Position numbers and translations under genes: made by a program | Part shown: piece by piece, positions 5,561-64,000 of the stretch | Layout of the letters: every line of letters begins with the position of its first letter | Position numbering within the stretch: the first letter of the stretch is position 1 | Origin: Squalus acanthias | Taxonomy: Eukaryota | Assembly: GCA_030390025.1 (NCBI GenBank) | Contig: CM059431.1 | Span: 123,072,001 to 123,136,000 of the forward strand | Reading direction: 5' to 3' | Length of the DNA stretch: 64,000 bases | Notes under the pieces: model-generated | Database searches by the model: none | Seen by the model: only the letters and a program-made list of their open reading frames with translations | What the model was told of the DNA's origin: nothing

Positions 5561-6124
5561 AGGATCCACTGTCTCTAAATTGTCAGACTGCTCGTCCGAC
5601 ATCCAGTACTGGATGAGCGGAAATTTCCTCCAATTAAATATTGGGAAGACCGAAGCCATTGTTTTCGGTCCCCGCCACAAACTCCGTTCCCGAGCCATCG
5701 ACTTCATCCCTCTCCCTAGCATCGGTCTGAGGCTGAGCCACACTGTTTGCAACCTTGGTGCCATATTTGACCCTGAAATGAGCTTTGGATCACATATCCA
5801 TGCCACAACTAAGACCACCTATTTCCACCTCCGTAACATCGGGGGTGATTTTCCCACTGGAGGCGAGATGGAGACGGGTTTCAGTTTGGGTGGGTTTGGA
5901 ACCCGCCTCCACTGATAGTTTTCAAAAATTTGCGATTTTCCCCTGATTGGCCACTTGATTTCAGAGGTGTGGGATGCTCTTGCTCAATTTGTCTTTTGGG
6001 GCTGAAACCCGCCTCTGCTGACATCACTTTTCAAGTCTGATTTTATGGCTTCTTGCTGCCTTGGCTCATTCCACAGGATTTCTGCCTATGCTGCACCACC
6101 TGCAACATATTCTGAGAAACCACT

Positions 6125-6310
6125 GTGTCCAATTCCAAGGCAAGGGCCTCCCCGAGGCTATCGGATGAGGTGCTACAAATATTGTTTGAGGGGGTGACAG
6201 CTAGCAGGGAGGTGCTCTTCCACTCATCTGGGAGGAAGAGGCCTCCCAAAGAAACCAAGTCTGTGTGGGCACAGCTGCCAAGGGATATAACCTCCAGATC
6301 TGTGTGCAGA
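6125..6310 (+). pseudogene. Harbinger Myb/SANT-like gene, truncated exon 1
   Basis: PRLSDEVLQILFEGVTASREVLFHSSGRKRPPKETKSVWAQLPRDITSRSVCR, homologous to 26900-27139; breaks off before WLQCRKRF. Confidence 0.85.
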
Positions 6311-6509
6311 TTGTTGTTTCTGTGTATTGATGAAATGCCATCCCTGTTGGAAAGCATTAAAATGATTTGATGCCAAAATGTTGGCGTTATGGTATCTGTT
6401 CTTTCGCCTTAGGCAGGTTAGTGCCCTGAGTGAAAGGAGGCCAGAGAGTCATGTCCATTGTCAATGATGTCTTAGGATGGAGCCAAGAACATGTGCCAAC
6501 TTGGGCAAC

Positions 6510-7861
6510 CTATGCAAATCTAGCCAGGATAAGTTCATCCCTTGCATTCCGGGCAGCCATGTGCTCGCGTGCTGCCGCTGCTGCTGGTTAATACACTCTG
6601 ACCTCCTCCTGCTCCTCCTCCTGCTGCTCCTCCACCTCCTCCAGATCCTCCTCCTCCTCAGCCTCCTCCTCTTCCTTCTCCTCCTCATCCTCATCTGAGG
6701 AGGGCTGGAACTGAGCCACTTGCTCCTCAGGAAGCTGCAAGCCATGACACTGTGCGATGTTATGCAGTGCACAGCAGACCACGACCATTCTGGAGACCCT
6801 GTATGGTGTATACTGCAGGGCTCCACCTGATCGGTCAAGGCAATGGAAGCGCATCTTCAACAACCCAATGGTTTGCTCGATGATGGACCTGGTCGAAGTG
6901 TGGCTGGCATTGTAGCGCTCTTCTGCCTCGTTAGTTGGCCTCCTGATCGGCGTCATTAGCCACTTCTTCAGGGGGTAGCCTTTGTCACCAAGGAGCCACC
7001 CGTTAAGTTGGCTTGGCGGATGAAAAGCAGAGGCACACTAGAGTGCCGCAGGATGAAAGAGTCATGGCAACTAGCACAGAACTTGGCGCAAACATGCAAG
7101 AACTCCTTCTTGTGGTTACACACCAGCTGTACGTTGAGGGAGTGGAAGTCCTTGTGGTTGACAAAGATAGCTGGGTTGTGATGGGGTGCCCTAAGGGCCA
7201 CATGTGTGCAGTCTATGACACCCTGCACCATTGGCATGCCTGCCGTATTTGCAAAACCAACCGAACGGGTGGTTATACTTGCTTGATCCCTTGAGAACTG
7301 GATGTAATTGTGGGCCTTAGCGGAAAGGGCATTGGTAACCTGCATGATGCAACTGTGGGCGGCCGACTGGGAGATGCCGCTGATGTCTGCTGATGATCCC
7401 TGGAAGGAGCCTGAGGCAAAGAAGTTGAGTGCAGTGGTGACTTTGACAGCCACTGGTAAGGGGTGTCCACCTGTTCCTCTGGGCACCAGGTCATTCTGCA
7501 GCAGTCCGCAGATCTTTCGGACCTCTCGCGAAAGTCTCAGCCTCATGTTGAGGTAGCTCATCCTCTGTCTGTAAACCCTCTGTCGGAGGTATCTCCTGCG
7601 GCGAGGTGCCTCGATGCGCCGGCGCCTTCTGCCCTGTGCAGCATCAGGTGGCTGAGCAGGAGGTTGGGGCTCCTGCTGCTGTTGCTGCTAAGCTACCTGA
7701 GCAGGAGGTTGGGGCTCCTGCTGCTGTTGCTGCTAAGCTGCCTGAGCAGGAGGTGGGGGCTCCTGCTGCTGTTGCTCCTGAGCTGCCTGGTTCTGCTGCA
7801 GCCGTGGATGCTCCTCATCCAAATCTGAGGTCCATGGTGAAATAAAATGAATGGTTCCCAT
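6510..7861 (-). pseudogene. Harbinger DDE transposase (HARBI1-like), near full length with stops and frameshifts
   Basis: MGTIHF start; LNFFASGSFQ; GVIDCTHV; HSLNVQLVC; HDSFIL; frameshifted [28 protein letters not shown]; acidic tail; ends AARNARDELILARFA* after a premature TAA at 6588. Confidence 0.95.
7654..7788. repeat. 45-bp tandem repeat x3 in the transposase N-terminus
   Basis: Unit GAGCAGGAGGTTGGGGCTCCTGCTGCTGTTGCTGCTAAGCTRCCT starting at 7654, 7699 and 7744. Confidence 0.9.
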
Positions 7862-8969
7862 GCTGCTTGCAGATGCCTCCGTTGGGGAAGCGCTCATTGC
7901 AAGCGGGGAGAGGGTCTTCCAAGGAGGTCCCACAGTTGATAGATTGAAGCTGCAGCACCTCCGACTTCGGAAGACCTTCTAAAAGTTCTCAAAGACCTTT
8001 TAAAGCAAAGTTGTGGCACCTGCAAGTAATCCCTGATGAAATAAATGATGTATTGTTGGACCTGCATCTGTGAGGAGACAACCCACGAGTCAACCCGTCA
8101 GGTTTAGCTGGCGTGGTTTAGGAGGGTCGTGGAACACGGCGAAATGCTCGAAAAATCACGAGGGCCTCTCAGAATAGGCTTAGAGAGGCCCTTAATGAAC
8201 ATTTAATGATCTTAACTAGCGCTATGGCCAGCGGGACCATTTCCCGACCTCCACAACCGGCACCGGCAAAATCCCGTGGAGGCGGGTTATGAACCCGCCC
8301 TCATTGTTTCTGATTTTCCCGCCTTTCCCGCCTCCAAACCTGCCTCCTCCTCGCATTGTCAGCCTCCACCCCTGCCTTAGCTCATCTGCTGCTGAAACCC
8401 TCATCCATGCCTTTGTTACCTCTAGACTTGACTATTCCAATGCTCTCCTGGCTGGCCTCCCATGTCCTACCCTATGTAAACTTGAGGTCATCCAAAACTC
8501 TGCTGTCCATGTCCTAACTCGCACCAAGTCCCGTTCATCCATCACCCTTGTGCTTGCTGACTTACATTGGCTCCTGGTTAAGCAATGCCTCGATTTTAAA
8601 ATTCTCATCCTTGTTTTCAAATCCCTCCATGGCCTCGCCCCTCCCTATCTCTGTAATCTTCTTCAGCCCCACAACTCCCCGATATCTGCGCTCCTCTAAT
8701 TCTGGCATCTTGAGCATCCCTGATTTTAATCGCTCAACCTTTGGTGGACGTGCCTTCTGTTGCCTCGGCCCTAAGCTCTGGAATTCCCTGCCTAAACCTG
8801 TCCGCCTCTCTATCTCTCTTTCCTCCTTTATGACGCTCCTTCAAACCTACCTCTTTGACCAAGCTTTTGGTCACCTGCCGTAATTTCTCCTTTTGTGGCT
8901 CGGTGTCAAATTTTGTTTTATGACACTCCTGTGAAGCACCTTGGGATGTCTTTAGTTAAGGATGCTCTC

Positions 8970-10000: not shown

Positions 10001-10080
10001 AAAAATGTATCCATTCATGGGTTGTGGACATCGCTGGCAAGATCAGTATTTATTGCCCATCCATATTGCCCTTGAGAAGG

Positions 10081-11072
10081 TAAGCCACATGCACGTTCAT
10101 GCTGTTTGGCCCGGGTCATCGGGAAAGAGATCTACTGGCGTCTCCTTTTATACAGGGCATTTTTCATCTCCCGGATACAGCAATGGACAGTGAACTGGGA
10201 GATATTGGCGATGTCCCCAGTAGCTGCTTGAAAGGATCCAGTGGCATAAAAATTCAGAGCCACTGTCACCTTCACTGCCAGCAACAGAGACGTCCTGGTC
10301 CTCAGTTGAGGCTGCAGATCTGGTTGCAGCAGGTGGCAGAGCTCAGTGACCACCTCCTTGCTGAAACGCAGCCTTCGCAAACACAGCTCCTCAGGCAAAT
10401 GAATGTAGGAGAATTGTTCCCAGAATACTCTGGGAGGGTAAGGTCTCCTGTGCAGAGGCCTGTTGGCCCTCCTCCCTCTGGCCATGATTGTCACTCTCTC
10501 TCTGCGTCTCTGATGCCTCCGATTGTGCAGGTGCAAGATGACGCCCCGAATCAGTGCAGCCCCCAGAGTCTCTTCTAAATCGGTGCAAGGAAGGTCAAAT
10601 CAAAAAGAACCTGCAACGTGCTGCTCAGTAGCCAAAACTCCTTCACACAGCGTTGAATCTCTCCAGAAGTCTCTCTCTCTCTCAGAATCTCTCTCTCTCT
10701 CTCAGAATGCGTGGTGCAAAAATGTCTCCAACAAAAAAAGGCAGGAAGAGGGCGCCTTTAAATAGCGCTCCCCCAGACCCTTCCCAACTGTAAACGTTCC
10801 CCTCTACCTGTCGTTGCTAGCGGCAGGCGGAAAGGAAGGGGGCGCCACTCAATATCCAATCCGGGGCGCTACCGGGGCTTTGCACGCTCGACTGACGTCA
10901 CGATCTGCGGGCGCAGGAGATAGTGTCGGTAGACTTTAGCGGCGCCGCAAAAATTCTGGCCAATTTCGCGAGCGGCGCAAACATCGCTGCGCCCGGGTGT
11001 AGTTGCTTTGCGCCCCATTAGCACCCTCTTAGGGCGCAAACGGGAAGCGCTAATCAACCGAATTTTTCCCCC
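10081..11072 (-). mobile_element. Harbinger fragment: transposase 5' part plus terminus
   Basis: ORF 10132-10536 RRPYPPRVF...CLRRLRFSKEVVTELCHLL...VTVALNFYATGSFQAATGDIANISQ; ends in TIR CCGAATTTTTCCCCC of the TAGCGCC family. Confidence 0.85.
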
Positions 11073-11229: not shown

Positions 11230-11686
11230 GATCTTGATGGAGTCAAGCTGCAGCACCTCTGACTTCGGAAGGCCTTCTAAAAGTGCTCAGAGGCCTTTTA
11301 AAGCCAAGGTCTGGCACCTGCAAGTAAAGCTTGCTGCATTAAACAATGTCTTGTTAGACCTACAGCAGTGAGGCGGCCACCCACGAGTCAACCCGCCAGG
11401 TTTTCCTGGCGTGGTTCAGGAGGTGCGTGGAGCACGCCAAAATGCTGGAAAAATCACGACCACTTCTCAAAATAGGCTTAAAGAGGCCCATAACGAGCAT
11501 TTAAGGAGGTTAAATCGCGCAATGGCCAGCTGGAGGCGGGAATGTTTCCCGACTTCCAAAACCAGCACCGGCAAAATCCCGCGGAGGCGGGTTGGAGGCG
11601 GGTTCCAAACCCGACCTCTTTGAATCTGATTTTCCCGCCTTTCCCGCCTCCAAACCCGCCTTCTCCGACGTCACAAAATCACCCCC
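11230..11686. mobile_element. Harbinger terminal fragment (family of 5841-8350)
   Basis: Colinear with 7940-8350; ends with TIR CAAAATCACCCCC. Confidence 0.85.
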
Positions 11687-11763
11687 TACACTTCTAAAGT
11701 ATTCCATTGGTTGTAAAGCACTTTGGGACGTCCGGAGGATGTGAACGATGCTATAGAAATATT

Positions 11764-12525
11764 GGCCCAGAAATTAAACAGTGAGTGTTCGCGCGGGGGT
11801 AAGGCGTCCCCGCGATATCTCACTCCGCGCCTACCTTTTTCCTCCGGGCCCACACGAACTTTAGTTTCAAGGCCAGCCCCACCTGCAGCTGTGCAGTGCT
11901 TGCGTGACCCAGAGACGCAATTAGTTCGTGCGAGCTCTGGGATCACGTGATTCAGTTAGAGCCAATGGCAGCACACCATCTTTCATTCATAGTTTTCACA
12001 GCAAGAGCTGTCAAAGCTATGAATCCTACACACCCCCAAAAGAACAGCTAAACCTCAATTAAATTTTAAAAAAGCCATCACATTAATAAAATAAGTATAG
12101 TTAAATAAATTAACCACTTTAAACAAAAAATTAAATTTTTGAAAAAATTTAAAATCTTTTTAAAAGTTATAAAAATAAACTTACCTTTCTTTAAAGTCTC
12201 TAAAAAAGATAAACCTGTTGAAAAAAATTTAAAATAATACTTAATTAACTATTTACCTTGTTAAAAGAGGGTCTTACGCCTCCTTTCTTCATGTGTAAAA
12301 TCTTCCATGCTTACCTGCGTGTTCAAAGCTGCAAAAATAACTAAGTGCACTGCGTGCGCGCAGCCTGTAGCGCGCACGCGGTTCACTTAGGAACCGGCCC
12401 CTTTTGAATTCACGAAGTGCCGGTTTCCCGCGCATGCGCAGTGCATGCAGGAAACCGGCAATTGGAGACCTAAAACGCGAGAGTACACAGTGCGTACTCT
12501 CGCTATTAGGTATAATTTTCGGGCC
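11764..12525. mobile_element. Harbinger MITE with AT-rich core
   Basis: TIR GGCCCAGAAATT / AATTTTCGGGCC; TSD ATT/ATT; inverted homolog of 45049-45789. Confidence 0.9.
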
Positions 12526-13472
12526 ATTAGGTTTTTTTTCTCCAGTGTACTGAGCCACCAAGTCGTGTCAAAAATATATTTATATATTTTCTCTCTATTA
12601 AATATGGCAGGCCTCATTTTTGTGTGTAAATTAGCCTTTTCTATTTCCCTTGCTATGTCAAAATGTATATACAGCTTCTGTTTATGCAACATACTTCTAA
12701 GAGATGCTTTGATACAACAAAATTAGACCAGTCAGCTTTAATTTACTTGTAGGAAATATTACTTAGTGCTCCAGACATATTTCATGCTAGGTTCATTACT
12801 GTGTGATTGTTTATGTTGAATAATCTTTTGATGTACGACACCATTAAAATAAGGAGGACATAATTATCATTTGATGTAATGGTGATGCAACTGTTACATA
12901 ATCATATAATCAGTTATGTGCGTCATGTATTCAAGTATGAGTAGTTGGAGAGGAGTTTGATAACCCATTTTAATTGACTGGCATGTCTCACGACTGAAAA
13001 CGTCAGAAACATTTACTAATAAAAGATCTTATTAGTGATACGTAGTTATATTCAATTTAAATAATTGCTGACATTTAAGTTATCAGCAATGATGATGTGC
13101 TCTGGAGGATAGCTTTGTCCATTTTCAACCTTTTAAAGAGTTTTTAAACAGCCTCAACTATAAATGCTTGACTTAAGTAATGACTTGCTGTCTGCAGTGT
13201 TGTGCAAATTTTATGCTGCTGCAGGTACCAGATGGTAAAACTAAGTTTTGGGTGAGTTGCTGGTGGGAAAGATGCACTACAGGACAACTGGCCGACCTGT
13301 ACCGTACCAACTGTTCCCCCTCTGAATTTCTGGGTTGGGATCTAATTGAACATTTAAAATTGTTTTCTACACGGTAGAGTGTAATTTTGTAGCACTGCCA
13401 CAACTATTTAATAGGGTGGGAAGCAATTTCTGAAAGAGTAAATTCTGAAAGAAAGTTATTTATTACCTACAA

Positions 13473-13700
13473 ATGCAATTCTCCAAAAGATCTCCAAAGT
13501 TCACAGACACAGCGCTGGAGGTACTGCGGCTAGAAGTAGATGTAAGAAAAAGTGACGAGTTTGACACAGCAGGTCACCTTCCTCAGAGGAGATCCATTCA
13601 GAATACCGAGCAGGAGGTCATCAATGCTTTCTCCCACCATCAGATCATTTGGATAAAATGTTAAACAAAATGGCAGATAAGGAAAGCCTTATGAAGGTAA
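13473..13700 (+). pseudogene. Old Harbinger Myb/SANT exon 1 remnant
   Basis: KRSPKFTDTALEVLRLEVDVRK...VINAFSHHQIIWIKC*TKW followed by an AAG|GTAAGA donor. Confidence 0.6.
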
Positions 13701-14060: not shown

Positions 14061-16165
14061 GGGCTAGAAATTAATCGACTTACCGACACTCCGTAGCGCA
14101 ATAAAATGGTGAAAAAATGGCAGCGGCCGCTCTTTCGCCAGCTGGTGGCATATCCTGCGGTGGCCGCCATATTCCTCTCCCCATTTGTGCTGCCGGTATC
14201 TGGCAATGCCCTGGAAAAAAAATGGCGGCATGGTGACGTCAATCGGCGTGCAACGCCGACTTAACATCACCAACACGAACATCGACCCTAGTGCTGGCGT
14301 GCAAGCAGGCTGACAGTGGCGATGTCTGCAGCTCTTAAAGGGACACACACATAATTCAGGTAAGTTTGAATTTAAGGGGGGAATTTTTTGGGGGGTCAGG
14401 GAGCGCGTTTGGTGGCGGGTCAGCTGGGAAAAATGTTTTCTTGACAGCGGGTAGGGAACCTGCTGTCAACCCGCCTCCAAGTTAGTCTTCCAGATGGCGG
14501 GTCTGTCATCGCTGACCAAGCGGCAAGGGAGGCAATTTAGAGTGTTAAGAGCTTGTTAACACGCACTTAAAAACTATTTTAAGCTCATCTTTAGATTTTT
14601 AGAGTTCGCCAACAGCTTCCCCGCTGCTCGGGGATCACGTCAGGTAAGGAGGTCGGGTGTTGTGTTGGCATGTGCTGATTTCTTAACTTGACAGTTTCAA
14701 ATGGTCCATAAAAGCTCCCATTTCATAGGTGTTCACTTTCCAAAGTTAGAAGCTGTTGCTTACTGCATTTGGAAGACAGATTGAGCTTTATGCAGCTTAT
14801 AAGTGTTTGGAGCTATCTCTCTATCCAATGTCACCTCATTGGAACAACCTCTCTCACCACTGACAGTTCGCTTCTGTCATGTCAACCTCACCTGCCATCT
14901 ATTCCATCAGCATTGGTGCCTTTAAAAAAATCTCACCTTGGTCCTCAGAATCCCACCATGATCAGCTTCAACACCAGCAGCACCAGGCACACCAGCATCA
15001 GGCACACCAGCAGCATCAACAACAACACCAACCTTCTCCATAATCAACTGATGCTGCACAGGACAGAGGGCATCAGCACCCGACTACATTGCTGCCCGGG
15101 AGGCCAGGGATGGCCTCACCATGGCCAGGTTTACTTCACTTGATGCTGTACACCCTGGCTGCCACATGATGTGCCAAGTTGGCACCACCCCACGCCAAGA
15201 CCATAAAGCATCCTTACAATGTCCAAGCCATTCCTTTCACACTCATCAGCATTGCGGGGGGTACCCGTTATGTAACATCATTCACTGCAACTCACTAAGC
15301 CACTTCCAAAGGTGCATAGAAATCTGTCCAAGAATGCAAAGTGTTTAAAATAAAGATTTCAATGTTTTACAGCACATTAATAGAAACTTCACATGAACAT
15401 TGGCTAAAACACCCAAGTGCCTACCCTTGTGTGTCGTTAGTTGGTATGCTTGGACTAGGATGAGGGTGAGTGTGAGGGGTGGCTAGTGAGATGGGGATGT
15501 GATAATGTAGATAGAGAGAGATGGGTAGAGGTGCAAGGTAAGTTGGTGTGAGTAAGGATGTGCAAGAGTAGGGTAGGGAAGGCAGAGTGATGGGGATGTG
15601 ATGAGTGGCACAGGAGGATGAGGTTGAGTGTGGCTTTGCAGTAATGTTTCATGATCTACTGAGATCATTGAAAGGTTTGCGCCACTGCAGCCTGGTCCTC
15701 CTGACGAGATCCCTGCTTGTGTCCTCCTGTGCAATGTGCAACCAGGCTGCGTTGGTCTCCTGGGAGGTCTCTTCTGCCCATGGGAAGGTACGAGCACCTC
15801 CTTGTTTTCTGTGACTCCCTCCATAAGCATATGGAGGGAGTCATGAGAGAGCCTGGGTGCAGCCGTGCACCTTTGTGCAGTGCTTGTCAGTATGTGCAGC
15901 AACTCAATGCTGTAGAATACTGACAGCACAACTGTCAAAATGAATGTGGACATGGCCCCTTTAAGGAAACCAGCTGCTGATGCATCATCAGATGATGTCA
16001 TCAGACCCGCTTCCTTTTAATTGGCCAGGAACCTCGCTGGGTGGGCTTAACAAACCCAATCATCGGAAAGTCATTTCGGAGGCTGGGCTTGAGACAGCAG
16101 CGGGGCCGAGATCCGCCAACAAGGTCACCCGCCACGGACCCGCCGAGGTTCGTAAAATCACAGCC
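14061..16165. mobile_element. Composite Harbinger derivative: Myb exon 1 on minus (about 15650-15870), transposase remnants on plus
   Basis: Ends GGGCTAGAAATT... / ...GTAAAATCACAGCC; minus PRLSHDSLHMLMEGVTENKEVLVPSHGQKRPP...RRTRLQWRKPFNDL. Confidence 0.7.
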
Positions 16166-16409: not shown

Positions 16410-17245
16410 TGGAAAATCTGACAAAGAGAAGGGTCCCTTGGCCTGGGAATATGGCGGAAAAAAGGCAGGAAGACCACAGGGGTGCAGACCACCCCACTGG
16501 CTCTAATTCTGCCGCAACAAGTGACATGGTCATTGACTGGCTGCTGAAGCGCAGCCTTCTCACTCACTGCTCCTCTGTCATGTTGAAGTATGACATCCTG
16601 ATGCAAAACACCTGCAAGCTATAAGGTCCCCATTTGCCCTGTCTCCTTTGCCATCTTCTTTGAGCAGGTGTGTGCTGCCGTGCTTTCTGCTGCTGCTGTG
16701 GCAGCCTCAATGGTAATCGCAACAACATTCCCATCTTTTCCAGTATTCTAGCAGCCAGTGGCATGGCAGAGTACAGCTGTAGTAGAGCTGTAAGTCAGCT
16801 ATACAACAGTATGATAGACCTTCCAAACTCAGCCAAAGCAGCTAAAAAAATGACTCAAAAAAATCCCCAGCACCCAAAAATGACTTGGCAGAGAATTATC
16901 TTGAAGGACGTGGGGATCCCTTTAAATAGCGCTGCTTTAGCCTGCTTCCTGAGAGTTTGTACCATGTTTTTCTGGACGAGTTTAAGAATGAGTGAATCAA
17001 ATGCGCACATGCACCATTTCCCAAAAGGTCCTAAGACAAGCACACGACCCCAGTTTAAATATTTTAACGTGCCCAGCGATCATTTCAGGCAGCCGCCAGG
17101 GTTGCCTAAGGAGCACATTAACCAATATGGCAGTGGTCTTATTTCATGTGTATATCTAGCGGAGGACATTCCAGAGCAAAATTGGAAAGTGGAACGCCAA
17201 ATTCATGGCCAAAAAATGGGTGATGCGCAAATGAATTTCTACTCC
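16410..17245 (-). mobile_element. Harbinger transposase 5' remnant plus upstream region
   Basis: PYSLQVFCIRMSYFNMTEEQ*VRRLRFS, the same N-terminal motif as at 10132-10536. Confidence 0.65.
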
Positions 17246-20519: not shown

Positions 20520-23232
20520 TGAAGGGATAATTACTAGTCCCAGCGCCTTTTGGGCTACCCCGGATCAGGCGTATTCCCCAGACGTTCACCTTCAACTAAA
20601 GTTAGAGCTAGCCGAATCCTAAAGACGCTTAATTGGGTCTAAAGGTCCAGACTATCTCTCCCTAAAGGAAAGGAACAGCCTGAAGATGTTACCGTCCTCC
20701 ATATAGCACTTTTAATAGGTTTAGCTAGACTGTAACCTTCCGGATATTATGAGGGTCCGGAAAACTCCCCCAGAATTCTGCAACTCCTCACCAAAGAGTG
20801 TACAGAGATTGAGTTTGCGAGTTTGATACAGAAGTACTATGTGAGACAATTCTAAAAATATATAGATTTATTAAATAACCGACATGTGTAAGATTCTCAA
20901 AATTCACAGATCCCCCTAACTCTCAGAAAAAAACCCTAAGGAAAAAGACTTTGGACTTTTTCTAGCTATTACAGGGTGGTGAAGTGCATTGGGCCTAACC
21001 GAAGAACTTTTGAGCAAAAACCAAGATTTGGTACTTTTAAAACATGTCTGGGCTTGTCAGGGAGAAAAGGCTGTGAAGGAAGGTGGGCTCAACCTCTGTA
21101 AAAACAGTTTGGGTATTGGAGCTAATGGGAACTGTCTGGGGAACCGCATGATCTCGCTGGAAGTTTAAATCTGCCCCTATCAGACATTAGCATCCTAACA
21201 ATAAACCCGAGGAGAACAGTCTCCACCCCAAGCTACAGAGCCCATTAAGATATGCATAAAACAAATTACTTCGGCTTACCCTATAGAAATCATAGGCCTG
21301 GCCAAGAAAACCCAAAACATAAGAACAATCAAACTCCGATTAAGTGGCACATCAACGGGATGGGGCCATCCCGGAATCACTTCACACCTTAACAAACCAG
21401 TTACTGTTAATGAGCCCGCCAAAACTAACAAAGACCGTGACCTGATTTGGCGTGCAGATAAGGAACCTTCAATGGGTATAATTGAAGGCCTGTTCTCAAC
21501 CTGAAAAAGAAGAAGAGGAAGAAAGAACAAGAAGACATCAACGGAGGCATTCTCCGCAACACAGTTCTAAAACCAACACCGTTCAGCATTCCGTGTCCAG
21601 CCAGGAGGTCGACAGCTTGAAGGCCAGACCATCCAACAAAGTAGGCTGATACGAGAAGAAGCCAGAACGACCGCCTCAGTGACCATCGGACACCTCGCGG
21701 CAACAAGGCCCTCACAAAACAGCCAACCAAACACCAAGTACCAGTATTCAGGTCACCGCGACCAAAGAAAACCAACTCGAAGAAAAACCGAAGACCGGCA
21801 AAATTTCCACTCTACAATCCACTCCTGACTTACCCCTGGGTAAGATTTTCCCTTAAAAAACTCTAAATCCTACTTCTAAACTAAAGAAAAGTGGGTACTC
21901 ACCTGATAAATCCAATACGCACCCTTCCGCATCAGCGGACTCGCGAAGACTGACCAGATACGCAGTTGAAGTCCTCTACTGCGTACGGGGTACGGCAGAC
22001 ACCAACCGACATATTGAGTGAACCCCAAAACCGCAAACTAACCTAACTGTCAAGGATTCTGGTGAGTATCATCCCTGGTTCTCCAGAGCCCAACCTAGCT
22101 AGTAAAGTGAGATTGGGAGGGGTGAAGTATTCTTTTAATGTTATTTCCCTCGCTTGTACCGAAGTGTTCCCCACTTTTAGAGTGTTAAGAGTGTTTGTGT
22201 TATGTTTTACTTTCTTAAATAAAAATCAAAGTTCTTGCATCAAACCCAGTTGTCTGCTGCACTTTTTGTCACAACCCCCAAATAAGTCCAACAGTTGGTG
22301 TTTCAATCGCAACATTAACAGTTCCAAATACAAAAGCTTACAATTCTTATTAACAGAGATCCTTATTCTCAAATCTTAACTTCGTTACATTTTTACATTT
22401 CTTAGTCTTATTCCAGGATATCTACCAAAATCAAATACAAGTACCTTGATCCCCAAGACTCAAAGCGTTGAAGACTTACAGAGCTTGCCTCTGAAGCCGG
22501 AGAATCGCTTTGCCCCTTACAGTGAATCTGTCTTCCCATTTGAAACTTCAATTTTTACACCCTTTCTCAGTGTTATTTCCTTTGAAGTTTTCTGCTGATG
22601 TAAGCTAATTTTCTCTAGTCATTTTTCTGTTGACCCCTGCTATTTTTACAGTCAGTTCAGCGGGTAGCAAGCAGACTTGTGTCTCTACCTTTGGGTGTTT
22701 CAAGTTCAACACAAAAACAATGTGACGGGTGGTGCCTCCCCCACTTGATGCCATTCTTACCAAGGTCTTCTGTTTGTATCTTTTGCATTTAGAACACCTC
22801 AACCGGATGCACCATTGTCTTCTGAGTTACCTCAACTGGTTGCATTAAGAATTATGTCTGCTGTGTAGGTGTCTCAAGCTTATCATAAAAAATAGTTTAA
22901 CAGCAGTGGTTCTATTTGATGTCATTTTTACGAAGGCATATGTTTCTTTAATTTTCTGTGTTTCATTTCAAAGTGTTGGTTTAAGACACCTTAACTGGGT
23001 ATACCATTGTGTTCTTTCCAATGCTGCAGACTTTCAGGAACCTCCAACCTTCTGTTTCAATAAGGCTATCGTTTCAGTGTCAACAACTTATCTTACCTCA
23101 AAAGCCTGTATGCTGTTCACAGCTTTAGATTGTTGAGGCTTCCAGATTTTCAAGCCCAGTTTGTCATGTTTTAATAAAGTCAGAATTCTTTTATAGGATG
23201 GTGTATTTTTCTGAATATGGCGTATTCCTTCA
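20520..23232. mobile_element. LTR-like insertion (TG...CA) carrying a nested second LTR
   Basis: Termini TGAAGG...CCTTCA; flanks CAAGG/CAAGT; interrupts the Harbinger left end just after the TIR. Confidence 0.6.
20887..22291 (+). mobile_element. Solo LTR (family of 38712-39646), 3' end truncated
   Basis: Starts TGTAAGATTCTCAAAATTCACAGATCCCC like 38712; shares GGTGAG.AT.ATCCCTG and AATAAAA...CACAACCCC.AAATAAGTCCAA. Confidence 0.7.
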
Positions 23233-23482
23233 CAAGTGTGGGCGGGCTGGGGCGTATCAGGACCCCGACTCCTAAGTGAAGTGTTGAAAAAGTGGATTTT
23301 CCCCTAATTGGGCAATTGATTTCCTGCGTGTGGGAACCCCTGGCCCAATGAGTCCTTTCATACAGAAAGTCGCCTCTGATGATGTCATCAATGCTGCTGG
23401 ATTTAAGGCCTGCAAGCAGCCTTGCTTCTTCTGGAGATTGCAAATGCTTTGCAAATTTTATGAAGGAGTTGATTTCCCGACA

Positions 23483-25455
23483 ATGTCCACGATCAAGCAA
23501 AAGTGTGTACCTCGGTTTGATGAGCCCTTCCTCTAAGCTCTGGTGCACGGAGCCAGATGAATAAGGAGGTGCTGTACCCATCCTCAGGGAGAAAAAAGCC
23601 ACCCCAGCAGACAAAAGCTGTGTGGCTGCAAGTGGCCGAGGAGGTGAACTCCATTTCAATGAGCCGCAGAACCTGGTTGCAATGCAGGAAGAGGTTTCAT
23701 GACCTTCTCCGCACAAGAAAAGTGAGTATGACTTTCCCATCACCCTCAATCTGATCCCCATTGCCTCTCCTCACCAGCACTCTGCTTTGCCAACCTCTTC
23801 CTCCACATCCCACTTGACACTTACATCCCTGCACCCTTACCCATTCTCTCTCTCTCTATGGTCACATTCACTTAACTATTCGACCATGCAGCCCTCACAC
23901 TCCCTATCACTGTGATGCAATGACAACAACAACTTACAACACAGGGAGGGTCCTTTGTATTCTACTCAGCATCTATGCTATGGATTCTCTACACTCACTT
24001 CTTCATTCTCACTCAAACTCCACTTGTGTCCCTCATTGCAGGAAAAGAGAGCCCACAATAAGAGGAAAAGAGCAAGGACAGGAGGAGGGCCACCCTCAGT
24101 AGCCCAGCTTAACCCCTGGGAGAGGCGGCCCTGGAAATCGCTGGGATCGAGGACGATACCCAAGTGGGGGATGGACAGATGAGCGCATCACAGCAAGCTG
24201 GTGACAGAATAGTTTGGCATCTCTCTCATTGACATTGCATGAGTCACTGATAATGAATCTGATGCTCTAACAGATTGACTTATGATCATCTGCAATATTC
24301 AATGTGCATGTAACCTTGACTTCACATCTCTAGCTCTTTCCTTTACTCCCCCACAGGACCATCGAAAGCCCCCGTCCCCACTGTCCAGGCGGAAGAGCCT
24401 GCGCTTCCAGACTCCTCAGAGGAAACTGCAACCTCTGAGGGTGCGGCGTCAGCAGAATTCAGCACAAGCAGCACCAGCGCAGACACTCACACCTCGGTGG
24501 GACTTCGCGAGATAGAGTAGTGTTGGCACCTGGTGTATCACAAGTGAGCATCAGCAGATGGTGGAGACAGGGTCAGCAGTGGAGAGTCCTCGTCGGAGTG
24601 CACAGGACTCTGCCAGCTCGGCTCAGCTGCATGTCGACCCTGTGCCTCTGGGTCCATCCAGAAGGAGAGCGGTGCTGGAACTCCAGGAACAGGTGCAGGG
24701 GTCTCTGGCAGGTTTTGTCTCCAGGGTCGCTGCGAGTGTGGAGCAAATGGAGGAGTCCATCGCGAACATCAGCAGAGCCTTTGTGGAGGCATTGGCGCAT
24801 GAACGCATCACCACAGAAAGGATGGCAACCTCCGTGGAAAGGATGGCTAACTCCGTGGTAAGGCTGGCTACCATAGAGGAGAGGATGGCTACGGTAGAGG
24901 AGAGGCAGGCTACGGCCATGGAGGAGCTTAGTCGCCAAGGTATGGAAAACAAGGTAATTGTTCAGAATAGAATGACATCTCTTGAGGAGCGATGGTCAGC
25001 TATTGAGCGTACAAACCAGACCTTCATGGAAGTCCTCTCGAGTAGGACTTCCAGTACAGAAACAGGTCCTCATGGACCCCCTGAAGTGCAGCAAGGTGCT
25101 GTTAAGCCACTTGCTAGCTCTGAAGTGGTGCTGACCCATGAGAGGGATGTTTGTGGCAGACAACAAGAAGTGGGGGCTCCTCTCCAGGCGCTCACACGAC
25201 CATGCCACTGCAGAGCCCTCGGTCAGAGCCCCACCAGAGTCCTTGCCCAACCGAGATCGGTGTCTCAACCCCTGCACAGCTGTTGGATCAGCAGACTGTT
25301 GCCGAGCCCTCACATGTTCGCAACCCCAGAGGACGACTGCCAAAGGCGTCAAGACAGGAGCAGCAAGAAAGTGAGCAAGGGGCCTCCACATCTGCTGAAG
25401 CCACAGGGGAAGCACGCGTAAGAGGAAGATAAAGCACAATTTGTCACAAGGGTAG
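23483..25455 (+). pseudogene. Harbinger Myb/SANT + coiled-coil gene, copy A (exons 23483-23721, 24042-24200, 24357-about 25455)
   Basis: GT-AG junctions equivalent to copies B and C; nonsense codon in exon 1 and 1-bp deletions in exons 1 and 2. Confidence 0.85.
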
Positions 25456-25701
25456 ACACTTGGGTGCTGTGATGTTTTGTATTTGGACCAGCCATCATTG
25501 TCATTGTATTATAAACAGATTTGATGGCAAACTGTTGAAGTTGTGGCCTGTGTCATTTCGCTAATGGGATTTTCACATTGAAGGTTTTGGGCACCTTGCA
25601 ATTGTCAGTATGGTTGTCAGAGTGATAGGAATCTGCAGGTTCTTGTCCATTGTCAATGCTCTGGTAAGAAGGTGTGAGACAAAAGTGTTTGATTGTGCAG
25701 G

Positions 25702-25927
25702 CTAACCAAATCTGGCCAAGATGAGTGCGTCCCTTGCATCCCGGGCAGCAATGTTGTCGCGCGCTGGCGCCTTCTGGCCTGTGCAGCTTCAGGTGGGTGA
25801 GCAGCAGCTTGACGCTCCTGTTGATGCTCCTGCTGTTGGTGCTACTGTTGTTCATAGTTCTGCTGCTGCCGCGGCTGGTCTTCATCCGAATCAAATGTCC
25901 GGAGGAAAGGAATTAAATAGTCGCCAT
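25702..25927 (-). pseudogene. Internally deleted Harbinger transposase (N-terminus fused to the last ~20 codons)
   Basis: ...AAQARRRQR joined out of frame to IAARDARDALILARFG*; compare 6510-7861. Confidence 0.85.
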
Positions 25928-26468
25928 GCTTCTGGTATATGCCTCAGTTGAGGAAGCGCTCAGTCAAGGTGGGGAGAAGGGTTTCCCAGGAGGTCACACT
26001 GGAGATGGGTGTCAGGCTCCAAACTTCCACAACAATGAGTAGGCCTGCTAAAAGTTCGCCCAGACCTGAGACAACAAAGTTCTGCCACCTGCAAATGATC
26101 ATCGGTGAAAACTCTTTTGTAATGTTGGAGCTGCAGCTGTTAGTAAGCAATCCACTTGTGAGGCCGCCAGGATTAACTGGTGTGTTCCAGAGGAGGCGTG
26201 TAGGATGGGGGAAATGTCTAAAAATCAGAAAGGCCTCTCAAAATGGGATAATAGAGGCAATTAAATGGTTGTTAAGGGCCTTAAGGGCCTATTCTACCTC
26301 TTGGAGGTGAGATGGAAATGGGGTCAGAAAACACGCATGTGGGAAAATTGCTCGGAGGTGGGATGGAGGCGGGATGGAGGTGGGATCGGCCCCGCCTGCC
26401 AGTTTTTGCGATTTTACCACCTCACACGCCTCCAATCCTGCCTCCTCGGGCCTGGCAAAATTGTGCCC

Positions 26469-26615: not shown

Positions 26616-26899
26616 AGTTTGGGCTCGATTTTGTCATGGGGCGGGCTGGGGGCGAGTCATCCGCTTTTCGTGTTAGCCACCCGGCTCCAATTTGATGTGG
26701 GAAAAATATGCGATTTTCCCCGAATTGGGCAATTGATTTCCAGCGTGTGGGAACCCCTGGCCCAAATAGTCTTTCCATTCTGAAACTCACCTCCGATGAC
26801 GTCATCAATGCTGCTGGATTTAAGGCCTGCAAGCAGCCTTGCTTCTTCTGCAGACTGCAAACCTTTTGGCCTTTGCTCTGATAGTTTCTTCCAGGCAAA

Positions 26900-28918
26900 A
26901 TGTCCAGCAGTAAACCTAAGTCTGCACTGAGGTTTGATGACGCCACCCTGCAAGCTCTGGTGGAGGGAGCAAGAGGGAATAAGGAGGTGCTCTTCCCTTC
27001 TTCAGGGAGGAAGACGCCTCCCCAGCAGACGAAGGCTGTGTGGATGCAAGTGGCCCAGGAGGTCAACTCCTTGTCTATGTGCCGCAGAACCTGGCTGCAG
27101 TGCAGGAAGAGGTTTCATGACCTTCTGCGCACTGGAAAAATAAGTATGACTTTCCCATCACCCTCAATCTGATCCCCATTGCCTCTCCTCACCAGCACTC
27201 AGCTTTGACAACCTCTTCCTCCACATCCCACTTGACACTCACATCCCTGCACCCTTACCCATTCCATCTCTCTGTATGTTCACATTCACTTAACTATTCG
27301 ACTATGCAGCCCTCACACTCCCTATCACTCTGATGCTATGAAAACAACTTATAACACACAGGGAGGGCCCTTGGTCTTGCCACCTCACTGAATCTTTGTC
27401 TCCTTCTAGGCATCTATGCTAAGGATTCTCTACACTCACTCCTTCATTCTCACTCAAACTCCACTTGTGTCCCTCATTGCAGGAAAAGAGGGCTCACAAT
27501 AAGAGGGAAAGAGCGAGGACGGGAGGACGGCCACCCTCAGTAGCCCAGCTCACCCCATGGGAGGAGGCGGCCCTGGAGATCGTGGGAGTGGAGGACGATG
27601 TGCAAGTGGGGGACGGACAGACGGGTGCATCAGAGCAAGCTGGTGACAGAATAATTTTTCATCTCTCTCATTGACATTGCATGAGTCGCTGATAATGAAT
27701 CTGAAGCTCTAACAGATTGACTTATGATCATCTGCAATATCCAATGTGCATGTAACCTTGGCCTCACATCTCTGACTCTTTCCTTTACTCCCCCACAGGA
27801 CCATCGAAAGCCCCCATCCCCACTATCCAGGAGGAACTATCTGAGCCTCCAGACACCTCAGAGGAAGCTGCAACCTCTGAGGGCGCAGCGTCAGCAGAAT
27901 TCAGCACCCCCAGCACCAGCGCAGACACTCTCACCTCGGTGGTACCTTCGCGAGATAGTGTAGTGTTGTCACCTGATGTATCACAGCTCACAAGTGAGCA
28001 TCAGCAGTTGGTGGAGACAGGGACAGCAGTGGAGAGTCCTAGTCGGAGGGCGCAGGACTCTGCCAGCTCGGCTCAACTGCATGTCGACCCTCTGCCTCCG
28101 GGTCCATCCAGAAGAAGAGCGGTGCTGGAACTCCAGGAAGAGGTGCAGGAGTCTCTGGCAGGTTTTGTCTCCAGGGTCGCTGTGAGTGTGGAGCGAATGG
28201 AGGAGCCTATCGCTAACATGAGCAGAGCCTTTGTGGAGGCATTGGCGCATGAACGCATCACCACGGAAAGGATGGCAACCTCCGTGGAAAGGATGGCTAC
28301 CTCCATGGTAAGGCTGGCTACCGTAGAGGAGACGATGGCTACGGTAGAGGAGAGGATGGCTACGTCCATCGAGGAGCTTAGTCGCCAGGGTATGGAAAAC
28401 ATGGTCATTGTTCAGAATAGACTGACATCTCTTGAGGAGCGATGGTCAGCTATTGAGCAAACAAACCAGACCTTCAGGCAAGTCCTCGGGAGTAGGACTT
28501 CCAGTGCAGAAACGGGTCCTCATGGCCCCCCTGAAGTGCAGTAAGATGCTGTCAAGCCACTTGCTAGCTCTGAAGTGGGGCTGACCCATGAGAGGGATGT
28601 TGGTGGCAGACAACAACGAAGTGGGGGCTCCTCTCCAAGCGCTCACACGACCATGCCACTGCAAAGTCCTCGGTCAGAGCCCCACCAGAGTCCCCACCCA
28701 ACTGAGATCGGCGTCTCATCCCCTGCACAGCCGCAGGAGCAGCAGACTGTTGCCGAGCCCTCACAGGCTCGCAACCCCAGAGGATGCCCGCCAAAGGTGT
28801 CGAGACAGGAGCAGCAATAAAGTGAGCAAATGGCCTCCACATCTGCTGAAGCCACAGGGGAAGCACCACGTAGGAGCACACGTAAGAGGCAGATAATGCA
28901 CAAGTCGTCACAAGTGTA
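26900..28918 (+). pseudogene. Harbinger Myb/SANT + coiled-coil gene, copy B (exons 26900-27139, 27483-27642, 27799-about 28918)
   Basis: RFDDATLQALVEGA...VWMQVAQEVNS...RTWLQCRKRFHDL; exon phases join in frame; first donor mutated GT>AT; premature TAA at 28542 and 28818; basic tail PRRSTRKR. Confidence 0.9.
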
Positions 28919-29157
28919 GTCACTTGGGTGAATTGTCATGTTTAATGGTGAAAAGCCATCAGTTGGTTATTGTAAATAAAACATTCTGATGGCAACTGTT
29001 GCAGTTGTGGCAGTTGTGGCGTCTGTCATATCACTAATGGGACTTCCACACTGAGGGCTTAGGATGACTTGGTCAGAGTGATAGCAATCCACAGGTTCTT
29101 GGCCATTGTCAATGGTCTGATAAGACGGTGCGAGGCAAAAGTGTTTGATTGTGCAGG

Positions 29158-29384
29158 CTAAGCAAATCTGGCCAAGAGGAGTGCATCCCTTTCATCCCGG
29201 GCAGCAATGTGGTCGTGCGCTGGCGCCTTCTGGCCTGTGCAGCTTCAGGTGGGTGAGCAGCAGCTTGGCACTCCTGTTGTTGGTGCTGCTGTTGGTGGTG
29301 CTGTTGTTCATGGATCTGTTGCTGCCACGGCTGGTCTTCGTCCAAATCTGATGTCCAGGAGAAAAGGAAATAAATGGTTCCCAT
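29158..29384 (-). pseudogene. Internally deleted Harbinger transposase, same junction as copy A
   Basis: MGTIYFLFSWTSDLDED...AAQARRRQR joined to HIAARDERDALLLARFA*. Confidence 0.85.
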
Positions 29385-29628
29385 GCTTCTGGTATATGCC
29401 TCAGTTGAGGAAGCACTCATTCAAGGTGGTGAGAGGGGTTTCCCAGGAGGTCACACTGGAGATGGGTGTCAGGCTCCAAACTTCCACAACAATGGGTATG
29501 CCTGCTAAAAGTTCCCCCAGACCTGAGAAAACAAAGTTCTGCCACCTGCAAATGATGATTGCTGAAAACTCCTTTTTAATGGTGGAGCTGCAGCTGTTAG
29601 TAAGCAATCCAATTGTGCTGCCACCAGG

Positions 29629-31092
29629 TGTAGGGGGTGGTGTGGTAGGGGTCAGCCTCACATCTGACTCAGTGAGTGGTTCAAATCGCTCCCACGGCCC
29701 TGGTTCTAGACCTTCGACTTATTTAGGGGCTGTGAATAAAGATGCAGTAGACAACAGGTTCAGATGAAAGAATTTTGACTTTTATTAAAAGAAAAGGTAA
29801 CAAACTTAAAACACACTTAACACTTAAACAGGTTGGGTAACACACAGTACAGGCGAGGGAGAATGACAATAGACAAAAACCCTTATCCCTCCAAAAAATC
29901 CCACTATCTAGCTAGGTTTTGGTTTCAGGAGATCAGGGATAATGCTCACCAAACAGGGGTTTTGACAGTGCAAAATCCAGCCAGGTAAGTTGATTGCAAT
30001 TTTGAGGTACTCTCTTTTTGTCCTTTGGGGCCTGCTGTCCCCACGTGCTACCAGTCTGTGAAGTCTGCGATGGTGGTCTGGTCATCGAGTTTTGTTGCAT
30101 TGGAGGCTTGTCGGGGCGGTACCTTCTGGGGCTGGACCGTGGGTTGAGCGATGCCGACTCGCGCCCAGCCTCCAGTGACCTTGGCTAGTGGCTGCTAGTG
30201 CTAGACCGTGTGCTGAGCGATGCCGACTCACTCCCAGTGGCCTCAGCTCTAGCCCTTGCCTGGCCTAGTCTGTCCTTGCCTCCGATCTCGCCCCGGGTCT
30301 GCCTCGTGGCCTTGCTGCTTCTCTCGTCCTCCTGCTCATGTCGTGTGGCTGGTAGTGTCTTGCTGGAACTTGCTGCAACTGGAACAGAGCTGAGAGAGAC
30401 TTTCTTGGGGGATTAGGCCCTCAATTATACTGTTCAGACCCTTTGTCTTTTTTGCGCCAAAACCCCTTTCCTAAATCGGTTTCGTGTTGAAGTGATTTAG
30501 GTTTCAGTTGAGGCCTGTTTATTCCATTGTCTTAGTTTTGTGGGCTTGTTAAGTTTTGATGGGTTTAAGTTGGTGCTAAATTGTCCTGATGGCTTCTGAT
30601 GTCTCCCATTTAGGCAGGTCCTTTATCTACGTGCCAAATCTTGTCCCTATAGATACCCGGCTGATTGGTTTTTGATGAAGTAATGGCTGTACTAGATATT
30701 TTATTGTTTACAGGCTTCTGGCATCCTGTTTGGGCTTGGGGATATTCAAAAGGTGTCTTGAATTATTCAATTTTGGATGTGTTGTGAGGTATTGGGTGAG
30801 GTTCTTCCTCCTGCCAGGATTGCAGTGCAAACAAATTCCAGACAGCTTGAATCCAAAAGCTGTCCACTGCCTCGCCACACCCCTTCACAAAGGTGTTTTT
30901 TTCCCATAGTCATTTTCAAAAGTCATTTTTCCTCAGGGTTTATCTTCCCTGAACTTTAAAATGTCCAAAACTCAGGTTTTTACCTCAAATCACTTCACTT
31001 ATGTCCCATCATCCCAAATTCGTAGGAAAAATCCAAAAATCACCCCTTTTAGGGTTCTATACGAGTTTCTGGGGAATTTTGCGAAGCTTACA
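29629..31092 (-). mobile_element. Solo LTR, 1464 bp
   Basis: TGTAGG...CTTACA; 4-bp TSD CAGG/CAGG; absent from copy A at the equivalent site; AATAAA on minus near 29785; inverted homolog of 38712-39646. Confidence 0.85.
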
Positions 31093-31394
31093 CAGGTTTC
31101 ACTGGCGTGTTTCAGAGGAGACATGAAGCACGTGGGAAGAGTGTTAAAATCAGAAAGGCCTCTCAAAATGGGATTATAGAGGCACTTAACTGGTGGTTAA
31201 GGGCCTTAAGGGCCTATCCCGCCTCTTGGAGGCGGGATGGAGACGGGGTCAGAAAACTCGCATTTGGGAAAATTGCTCGGAGGCGGGATGGAGGCGGGAT
31301 CGGGCCTGCCTGCCATTTTTCATGATTTTAACACCTCACATGCCTCCAATCCCTCCTCCTCGGGCCTGGCAAAATCGAGCCCTTTGTCTTTCTG

Positions 31395-44702: not shown

Positions 44703-45048
44703 AGCGAATGTAAATCGGGTGTCTATCTGACAATCTCCTTAGGGAAGTTTAACTCCTCTTTGCTCTGGTGTCTGATCGGTTGCATTCACTCTATACATGC
44801 AGCATCACTATTAAGTGGTTTAATTTCACATTGACACTTAGTTATTGTGTGAATGCATTCTTGAATGCTAATAGGGGAGGGTCCATTCAAGAGTTAATAT
44901 ATTAGTTGCATTCCCATTAGAGTGCTATCAGAAATTTTTGATTACTGAGAGTGATGCTATCTTTCCTCATTAGTCTAGACTCAATCTATACCACACTGAT
45001 GAGCTTGTATTCGACATACTCCTGCTCAGTTATGACACTGAACTTAAT

Positions 45049-61902: not shown

Positions 61903-64000
61903 GGACTGGATTTTGTCATTGGGGGGCGGGCTGGGGTGGGTCAGGTGGTCGGTGGGTCACGACCCCGCCTCCGATGTGAGGCGGGATAATTGAGCAATTT
62001 TCCCCTAATTGGGCTCTTGATTTCCAGCGTGTGGGAACCCCTGGCCCAATGATTATTTTGATGCTGAAACTCGCCTCTGATGACATCATCTATGCAGCTG
62101 CATTTAAGGCCTGCAAGCAGCCTTGGTTCTTTTTCTGCCTTACAAGTTTTGCATTATACTACTGAGGGATTCGTGCTCCAACCATGTCAAGCAGCAGACC
62201 AAAGTGTGCACCCCGATTCAATGAGAACTCCCTCCAAGCTCTGGTGGATGGAGCAGGAGCGAATAAGGAAGTGCTGTTTCCTTCTTCAGGGAGGAAAAAG
62301 CCTCCCCAACAGACCAAAGCTGTGTGGCTGCAAGTGGCCCAGGAGGTGAATGCCATATCAATGTGCAGCAGAACCTGGCTGCAGTGCCGAATGAGGTTTC
62401 ATGACCTTCTCCGCACAGGAAAAGTGAGTATTCCATCCACATGACCCTCAATCTGATCCCCATCGCCTCTCATCACCAGCACTCTGCTTTGTCAACCTCC
62501 TTCTCCACATCCCACTTGACCCTTACATCCCTGGACCCTTAACCATTCCCTCTCTCTGTATGTGCATAGTCACTTAACTATTTGACTATGCAGCCCTCAC
62601 ACTCCCTATCACTGTGATGCAATGACAACAACTTGCAACACACAGGGAGGGCCCTTGGTATTGGCACCTCACTCCATCTTTGTGTCCTTCTAAGCATCTA
62701 TGCTATGGAGTCTCTACACTCACTCCTTCATTCTCACTCAAACTCCACTTGTGTCCCTCATTGCAGGAAAAGTGAGCCCACAATAAGAGGGAGAGAGCGA
62801 GGTTAGGAGGAGGGCCACCCTCAATAGCCCAGCTCACCACTGCAGAGGAGGCGGCCCTGAAAATCGTGGGAGTCGAGGAAGATGCGCAAGTGGGGGACGG
62901 ACAGACGGGAGCATCACAGCAAGCTGGTGACAGAATAGTTTTTCATCTCTCTCATTGACATTGCATGAGTGACTGATATTGATGCTAAAGCTCTAACAGA
63001 TTGACTTATGATCATCTGCACAATTCAATGTGCATGCAACATTTATCTCACATATCTAACCCTTTCCTTTACTCCCCCACAGGACCATCGACAGCCCCCC
63101 TCCCCACTGTCCAGGAGGAGCAGCCTGAGCCCCCAGACTCCTCAGAGGAAGCTGCAACCTCTGAGGGCGCAGCATCAGCAGAATTAAGCGCACCCAGCAC
63201 CATCGCAGACACTCAAACCTCAGTGGGACCTTCGGGAGATAGAGTAGTGTTGTCACCTGGTGTATCACAACTCACAAGTGAGCATCAGCAGATGGTGGAG
63301 ACAGGGACAGCAGTGGAGAGTCCTCGTCAGAGGGCACAGGACTCTCCCAGCTCGGCTCATCTGCATGTCGACCCTGTGCCTCTGAGTCCATCCAGAAGGA
63401 GAGCGGTGCTGGAACTCCAGGAGCAGGTGCAGGAGTCTCTGGCAGGTTTTGTCTCCAGGGTTGCTGCCAGTGTGGAGCGAATGGAGGAGTCCATCGCTAA
63501 CATGAGCAGAGCCTTTGTGGAGGCATTGGCACATGAACGCATCACCACGGAAAGGATGGCAACCTCCATGGAAAGGATGGCTACCTCCATGCTAAGGCTG
63601 GCTACCATAGAGGAGAGGGTGGCTACGGTAGAGGAGAGGATGGCTACGGCCATGAAGGAGATTAGTCACCAGGGTCTTGAAAACATGGTCATTGTTCAGA
63701 ATAGACTGACATCTTTTGAGGAGCGATGGTCAGCTATTGAGCAGAGAAACCAGATCTTCATGGAAGTCCTCTGGAGTAGGACTTCCAGTGCAGAAACGGG
63801 TCCTCATGGCCCAACTGAAGTGCAGCAAGGTGCTGTCAAGCCACTTGCTAGCTCTGAACTGGGGCTCACCCATGAGAGGAATGTTGGTGGCAGACAACAA
63901 GGAAGTGGGGGCGCCTCTCCAAGCGCTCACATGACCATGCCACTGCAGAGCCCTCGGCCAGAGCCCCACCAGAGTCCTCACCCAACTGAGATCAGCGTCT
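61903..64000. mobile_element. Harbinger copy C (runs off the window end)
   Basis: Left TIR GGACTGGATTTTGTCA; colinear with 26621-28720. Confidence 0.9.
62184..64000 (+). pseudogene. Harbinger Myb/SANT + coiled-coil gene, copy C (exons 62184-62423, 62767-62926, 63083->64000)
   Basis: All visible splice sites are GT-AG; exon 3 is open to the window end; one TGA at 62773 in exon 2. Confidence 0.88.

Follow-up and report, generated by a model that had tools for sequence, protein, structure and literature searches.

One-gene Harbinger elements in a Squalus acanthias locus: a dead transposase-only copy beside decayed Myb-only copies of a putative sister subfamily

Introduction

Can a DNA transposon that needs two proteins be propagated as two defective forms, each keeping one of the genes? 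The question is raised by a 64,000-nucleotide stretch of Squalus acanthias DNA (assembly GCA_030390025.1, contig CM059431.1, positions 123,072,001-123,136,000, forward strand), here called the window, which is rich in fragments of long interspersed nuclear elements (LINEs) and in derivatives of Harbinger transposons. Harbinger needs both its DDE transposase and a Myb protein, which binds the ends of the element and the transposase and escorts the latter (PMC9179366). One copy in the window, T, keeps the transposase span, and others, A and B, keep the Myb gene (Table 1). A preliminary description proposed that the two kinds form a split, mutually dependent pair. The answer favored here, which we hold to be probable rather than secure, is that these are solo-open-reading-frame (solo-ORF) deletion derivatives mobilized in trans, with two-gene copies of the respective subfamilies as the simplest source of the proteins.

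Table 1. Harbinger copies in the window and their parts (positions counted from the first letter of the window)
Feature	Positions	Strand	Remarks
Copy T, transposase-only Harbinger	5841..8354		right terminal inverted repeat (TIR) lost; inside L2/CR1-type LINE
Left TIR of T, 12 bp	5841..5852	+	reverse complement closes copy D at 11686
Myb exon-1 remnant of T	6125..6307	+	61 open codons, GTG start
Myb-deletion junction of T	6301..6307	+	exon 1 fused to Myb 3' untranslated region (3'UTR)
Transposase pseudogene of T	6510..7861	-	ATG at 7861, stop at 6510-6512
Acidic CCT tract in T transposase	6602-6692
Tandem repeat in T transposase	7652-7789		45 bp x3.1
Copy D, right end only	11234..11686		with right TIR; 80% like T; nearest kin of T in the window
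Copy C	14376..16165	-	encodes neither protein; end near 16165 approximate
Copy A, Myb-only	23240..26468	+	exons 23483-23721, 24042-24200, from 24357
Transposase-deletion junction of A	near 25761-25770
Copy B, Myb-only	26621..31382	+	exons 26900-27139, 27483-27642, from 27799
Transposase-deletion junction of B	29216-29226
Later insertion in B	29629-31092
Copy E, left part of A/B-type element	61903..64000	+	runs off window end; transposase side outside view

Copy T and its transposase

The transposase span of T is whole, as the preliminary description had it, and the gene is dead. Pfam family PF13359 (DDE_Tnp_4) is matched above its cut-off in both halves (6971-7687, E 4e-12; 6591-7037, E 7e-20), and the catalytic D-D-E triad lies at 7211-7213, 6984-6986 and 6876-6878. 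The frame is broken by three stops (7733-7735, 7688-7690 and 6588-6590) and by a frameshift near 7020, at which point the contigs of all four sequencing runs described below are one base longer; relative to homologues there are also two short gaps, of 7 residues and of 1 residue. The best 40 of 71 protein matches are 43-65% identical to T, and the named ones all come from sharks or rays (HARBI1-like, DDE_Tnp_4). The triad is kept in 30 of the 71. In a quick tree of 70 of the 74 rows, T clusters with 10 proteins, nine from Pristiophorus and one from Heterodontus (support 97 in the Shimodaira-Hasegawa-like approximate likelihood ratio test, SH-aLRT). Several groups of HARBI1-like proteins have short branches and span different sharks or rays: P0003/P0004 with P0086-P0088, P0013/P0015 with P0089-P0090, P0008/P0044/P0045, and P0023/P0025. 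The catalytic E is missing in P0003/P0004 and P0013/P0015, and the first D in P0023/P0025. To judge from their sequences, these groups look like elasmobranch domesticated transposase genes.

Contigs from four of 24 listed public runs (X4, X7, X13 and X19, with organism codes C, A, E and C, hence three codes) were aligned on 5741-8450 at 80% likeness or more. No run contains more than 40% of the sampled words, so the contigs represent relatives of T and not the T locus itself. They are short and none spans the whole element, which puts the linkage of junction and transposase on one copy beyond their reach; per-contig depth gives no copy number, and the minimum accepted alignment length is unstated. 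Run X19, marked 'RNA?', may be DNA and is not taken as evidence of expression. Fifteen joints, 24 loose ends and 32 long pieces are listed, with many more of each kind beyond these.

LINE sequence without the element is recovered in the run contigs: 14 of the 15 listed joints pass from about 5840 (5799 in one case) to 8364-8391, jumps from 5838-5841 to 8364-8383 among them. A 3-bp target-site duplication (TSD) of T is probable at 5838-5840 and 8355-8357, the right copy being altered as by CpG decay. Relative to copy D, T lacks its last ~16-20 bases, including the right TIR. Because a TIR is required for movement, this loss probably came after insertion.

The Myb deletion of T and its spread

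The Myb gene of T had been described as stopping inside exon 1 at about 6310. It does stop there, after 61 codons, with the break at 6301-6307: exon-1 homology extends as far as 6307, and from 6301 onward the sequence is homologous to the Myb 3'UTR of copy A. About 1.83 kb is absent relative to copy B. The remnant gives a weak match to Myb_DNA-bind_5 (E 0.014, under the curated cut-off). Its MGTI..WTSDLDE start, which A and B were said to share, is intact in T and B; in A it holds a stop and a frameshift.

A junction unique to this locus had been named beforehand as the outcome that would speak against a split family. The junction was instead found in contigs of all four runs, under three organism codes, so T is read as a member of a propagated transposase-only form. 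We claim from these alignments that the junction is multi-copy, a statement that carries no count of loci. The details are as follows. T has a private 5-bp deletion at 6313/6314; at 6312-6314 other copies are longer by about 5 bases, of which there are several variants. Among the rows listed, at least 8, 15, 5 and 1 distinct contigs in the four runs have insertions at 6312-6314; the depth of each such contig in X4 is 275-620, against 9-18 for seven of the eight long pieces of that run and 54.7 for the eighth. Summed depth falls by 83, 73, 40 and 49% exactly from 6313 to 6314, the site of the private deletion. Contigs that end at 6313/6314 must come from the left, which means that they run from exon 1 through the junction zone and at least 6 bases into the 3'UTR beyond it. 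All 30 bins, including the transposase core, are covered in all four runs. A stricter rule, at least 31 letters on each side of the junction, is satisfied by one of the 32 pieces listed (X13 record 1, 6241-6415), which has 18 differing letters and is ~10% from T. A loose end of X4 at 6314 stops within 17 letters and is uninformative on the sequence further left.

The deletion could alternatively have arisen in T after its insertion, the bridging contigs being orthologues or alignment artefacts. The shortness of the contigs and the single formally bridging piece would suit such a one-off event, as would the other private damage in T (the lost right TIR and the 5-bp deletion). We judge it very improbable: in each run several sequence variants occur at 6312-6314, with depths that greatly exceed those of most long pieces, the bridging piece differs from T by 10%, and no listed joint or piece ties the ends of T to this LINE site in another run.

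The Myb-only copies and the transposase deletion

In A and B, sequence matching T 6578 is joined to sequence matching T 7615, and ~1,037 bp of transposase core is gone. The three-exon Myb gene and the missing core that had been ascribed to both are confirmed. Their exons correspond to residues 1-80, 81-133 and 134 onward of P0077, a Myb protein of 465 residues with an open frame, annotated in Heptranchias; P0083, also from Heptranchias, is a full-length open Myb of the same three-part build. Three exons are likewise seen in E, and in B and E the first two are 240 and 160 bases long and phase-compatible. Exon 1 of B and E matches PF13873 above cut-off. The protein search with exon 3 of E (0 of 3552 candidates) and that with the Myb remnant of T against longer proteins (0 of 27) gave blanks of little weight, and 12 relatives were found by index-free protein search after the blanks with the Myb queries.

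The transposase-deletion junction is common to A, B and C and free of gaps. In C, which is 73-76% identical, it lies near 15072, and Myb exons 2-3 are gone as well. A spliced intron was ruled out as its origin, there being no GT..AG ends and the join being out of frame. The Myb deletion of C begins in intron 1, and its right-hand end nearly coincides with that of T, where the 3'UTR begins. The two losses would be independent deletions with a common right-hand hotspot.

Copy B retains both TIRs, with a 3-bp TSD (TTT/TTT). Its later insertion, 1,464 bp long, resembles a solo long terminal repeat in its TG..CA ends and in what looks like a 4-bp target duplication; it has partial relatives at 39269-39647 and 22060-22291. 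All the copies are disrupted, as had been stated: besides the three stops and the frameshift of T, there are frameshifts in exons 1 and 2 of A (which also lacks its left TIR), an intron-1 donor reading AT and an exon-3 stop in B, and an exon-2 stop in E. The PIF/Harbinger features present are DDE_Tnp_4 with D-D-E (T, broken), a Myb/SANT-like second gene (B, E), and short TIRs with a 3-bp TSD. The solo-ORF pattern, in which one gene is kept through a large deletion, is seen in T (without ~1.83 kb of Myb) and in A and B (without ~1.04 kb of transposase). Each one-gene form is multi-copy, and since the Myb junction occurs in contigs of all four runs and the transposase junction in three window copies, A, B and C, both are considered to have been propagated.

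Kinship of the two forms

Propagation of both one-gene forms as lineages is the part of the split-pair proposal that stands. That they are complementary halves of one element does not. Measured per 150-column window, the divergence p between T and A/B/E is 0.26-0.53; it is 0.17 between T and D, and 0.05-0.15 in the core of A against B. The TIRs of T and A/B differ at 3 of 12 bases, and the Myb remnant of T is 44-48% identical to the B/E protein. A split family would have one parent and highly similar termini; this divergence and the different TIRs show neither. From these comparisons, T and A/B are taken to be sister subfamilies and not halves of one element. Their ends, described earlier as related, are so, with local matches only ~70% alike, T without a right TIR and A without a left one.

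T, A, B, D and four short non-coding elements have a subterminal motif in common near their ends, so cross-recognition between the T and A/B subfamilies is possible. The short elements (32783-33444, 41306-41626, 42738-43581 and 54285-55116) have related TIRs, and three short relatives have clear 3-bp TSDs (ATA, TAT and TTA). Rough ages overlap: the A-B core differs by 8-10%, most run contigs match the stretch at 90-99% (LINE flanks included), and the 32 long pieces listed, a set biased to old copies, differ by 9-20% from T with a median of 15%.

Selection and mosaicism in the Myb-only copies

Copies A (23240-25265), B (26621-28716) and E (61903-64000) are mosaics. Among them, exon 1 (78/80 codons) has a synonymous divergence (dS) of 0.43-0.60 and a non-synonymous divergence (dN) of 0.10-0.14, giving dN/dS of 0.16-0.31 with bootstrap intervals below 1, and exon 2 (51/53 codons) has dN/dS of 0.25-0.58. 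The left end shares the high divergence of exon 1, with p of 0.17-0.34 in the left subterminal region. The introns differ by 0.07-0.13, and exon 3 (299/305 codons, up to the window end) has dS of 0.09-0.11 and dN/dS of 0.8-1.0. The synonymous excess of exon 1 over exon 3 between A and B is significant (Fisher p 3e-6). CpG decay was ruled out as the cause of the exon-1 divergence, because non-CpG and transversion distances stay high. The N-terminal transposase remnant of A/B (51 codons) is uninformative, its dN/dS of 0.48-0.67 having a confidence interval that spans 1.

Such divergence requires recombination. It suggests that the DNA-binding exon and the adjoining left end were exchanged between lineages; these parts would stem from lineages that are older and were under purifying selection, with a younger, shared interior. 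The mosaicism cuts both ways: it fits functional Myb-only masters, and also an exon 1 picked up from two-gene elements.

The selection signal on exons 1-2, together with the divergence of the left subterminal region, could mean that the Myb-only lineage was long-lived and active on one side only, binding its own ends and recruiting the transposase of others, with T-type copies as passive passengers of two-gene elements. The expansion in Caenorhabditis inopinata of only the MADF-bearing branch (PMC13668399) points the same way. This account seems to us doubtful. The mosaicism leaves the place where exon 1 evolved ambiguous, dN/dS in exon 3 is 0.8-1.0, and three copies were compared, one of them (E) cut before the transposase side.

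How the one-gene forms may have been moved

Harbinger transposase and Myb protein are synthesized in the cytoplasm and work in trans. It follows that any compatible transposase and Myb at hand could have mobilized shortened elements. On the reading of solo-ORF derivatives moved in trans, T would be a dead member of a propagated transposase-only subfamily, and A and B, probably also E, dead members of a propagated Myb-only lineage in the sister subfamily. Each lineage would go back to a single internal deletion, between short similar stretches, in a two-gene ancestor (the junctions are observed, the microhomology mechanism we infer), and each derivative kept its termini and subterminal motifs. 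The likeliest source of the proteins would be two-gene copies of their own subfamilies, to which the retained gene could have added. Co-occurrence of solo forms does not by itself imply mutual dependence, since sea-krait solo forms amplify beside intact two-gene copies.

Several observations weigh against this reading. A tblastn search of the window with 10 transposases and 4 Myb peptides found no complete two-gene Harbinger with both TIRs, as had been noted earlier, copy E being cut by the window end and left unjudged. Between A and B, both without transposase, dN/dS in exon 1 is 0.23-0.31 (synonymous over non-synonymous changes, Fisher p 5e-4); such selection would not be expected of purely passive derivatives unless exon 1 was acquired by recombination. 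The depth of contigs with the junction is comparable to that over the rest of T, and Myb-deleted copies may therefore be a large part of the T subfamily. Among the 24 loose ends listed, none leads from ~6305 into further Myb sequence. As to spread, one listed piece alone satisfies the 31-letter rule, and depth is no copy number. The joint 6578 to 7615, which would mark a Myb-only form within the T subfamily, is not among the 15 joints listed, from which repeat rows near 6598-6699 were excluded; it is not used as proof of absence.

Mutual dependence is a rival reading. After loss of the two-gene elements, T-type and A/B/E-type copies would have spread side by side, the one kind providing transposase and the other Myb. 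Both junctions are found at the level of lineages, and the transposase deletion must be old, since copies that differ by 24-27% have it in common. The dN/dS of exon 1, the common subterminal motif and the rough overlap in age agree with it, and a split family is reported in C. inopinata, where the authors call supply in trans hypothetical (PMC13668399). We consider it unlikely on balance: T is far from A/B and its own Myb remnant is well removed from theirs, congruent transposase and Myb trees in fish suggest that partners co-evolve (PMC9179366), and A, B and E are mosaics whose selected exon 1 may have evolved in two-gene elements. A bolder form is also improbable, in which T-type and Myb-only sister subfamilies, roughly 30-45% apart and each from one old deletion, were long co-amplified without two-gene copies while the Myb-only lineage kept and swapped a selected DNA-binding exon with its left end. 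If true, it would be a lasting cross-subfamily mutualism between vertebrate DNA transposons with both halves amplified, beyond the sea-krait and nematode cases.

The preferred reading remains that of deletion derivatives served in trans. The two junctions provide clean markers for testing selection on transposon genes that act only in trans, and if both halves proved to have been selected after the split, they would be a genuine example of defective transposons cooperating.

Other features of the window

Further Harbinger transposase fragments lie on the minus strand at 149-471 and 10057-10488, with weak ones at 16498-16623 and 61643-61756. The first two were considered as part of the T finding and set aside, having no blastn match to T and the second belonging to another clade. 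On the plus strand, 13449-13661 is a 71-codon open stretch weakly like Myb/SANT (E 5e-4 against P0083 in a two-protein search). It lies outside every mapped element, has no Pfam match, and would be either an old relic or a host exon. A separate, unclassified repeat family has three copies, 74-83% alike, at 11758-12533, 45041-45795 and 52332-53008. A metagenome scan for loci with context gave 595 pattern matches, none of which was confirmed.

Comparison with known systems

A 2022 survey of fish found no Harbinger in the elephant shark, the sole cartilaginous species it examined, and urged checks of others (PMC9179366). Solo-ORF Harbingers of elasmobranchs did not appear in the titles and abstract openings listed by a literature search, a weak negative, most subscription journals and repeat databases being outside its scope; the accessible parts of PMC5741667 and PMC9392472 hold nothing further on solo Harbinger forms. 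The elasmobranch HARBI1-like proteins and the Heptranchias Mybs were compared as proteins alone.

A close likeness is Harbinger-Snek of sea kraits, in which large deletions gave multi-copy transposase-only and Myb-only variants as well as short non-coding derivatives; its intact copies in Laticauda colubrina number 2263 transposase-only, 452 with the Myb (DNA-binding) gene only, and 269 with both, and it has sea-urchin relatives with one gene or the other (PMC8437027). The sea-krait variants belong to one young family with many intact copies, those 269 two-gene copies among them, whereas in the shark all copies are decayed and the solo forms come from subfamilies roughly 30-45% apart.

In C. 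inopinata, Harbinger-1M_cIno comprises 5 DDE-only and 19 MADF-only elements and 1 pseudogenised two-gene element, and the idea of supply in trans, termed hypothetical, is already in print there; the same paper states that shorter Harbingers move more readily (PMC13668399). The two nematode forms descend from one parent and have highly similar termini; their family is active, and its DDE-only forms are unexpanded (PMC13668399). The shark differs in that the transposase-only form appears to have been amplified and the partners do not come from one parent. Multi-copy solo forms were thus already known elsewhere, and the copies described here extend solo-ORF Harbingers to elasmobranchs.

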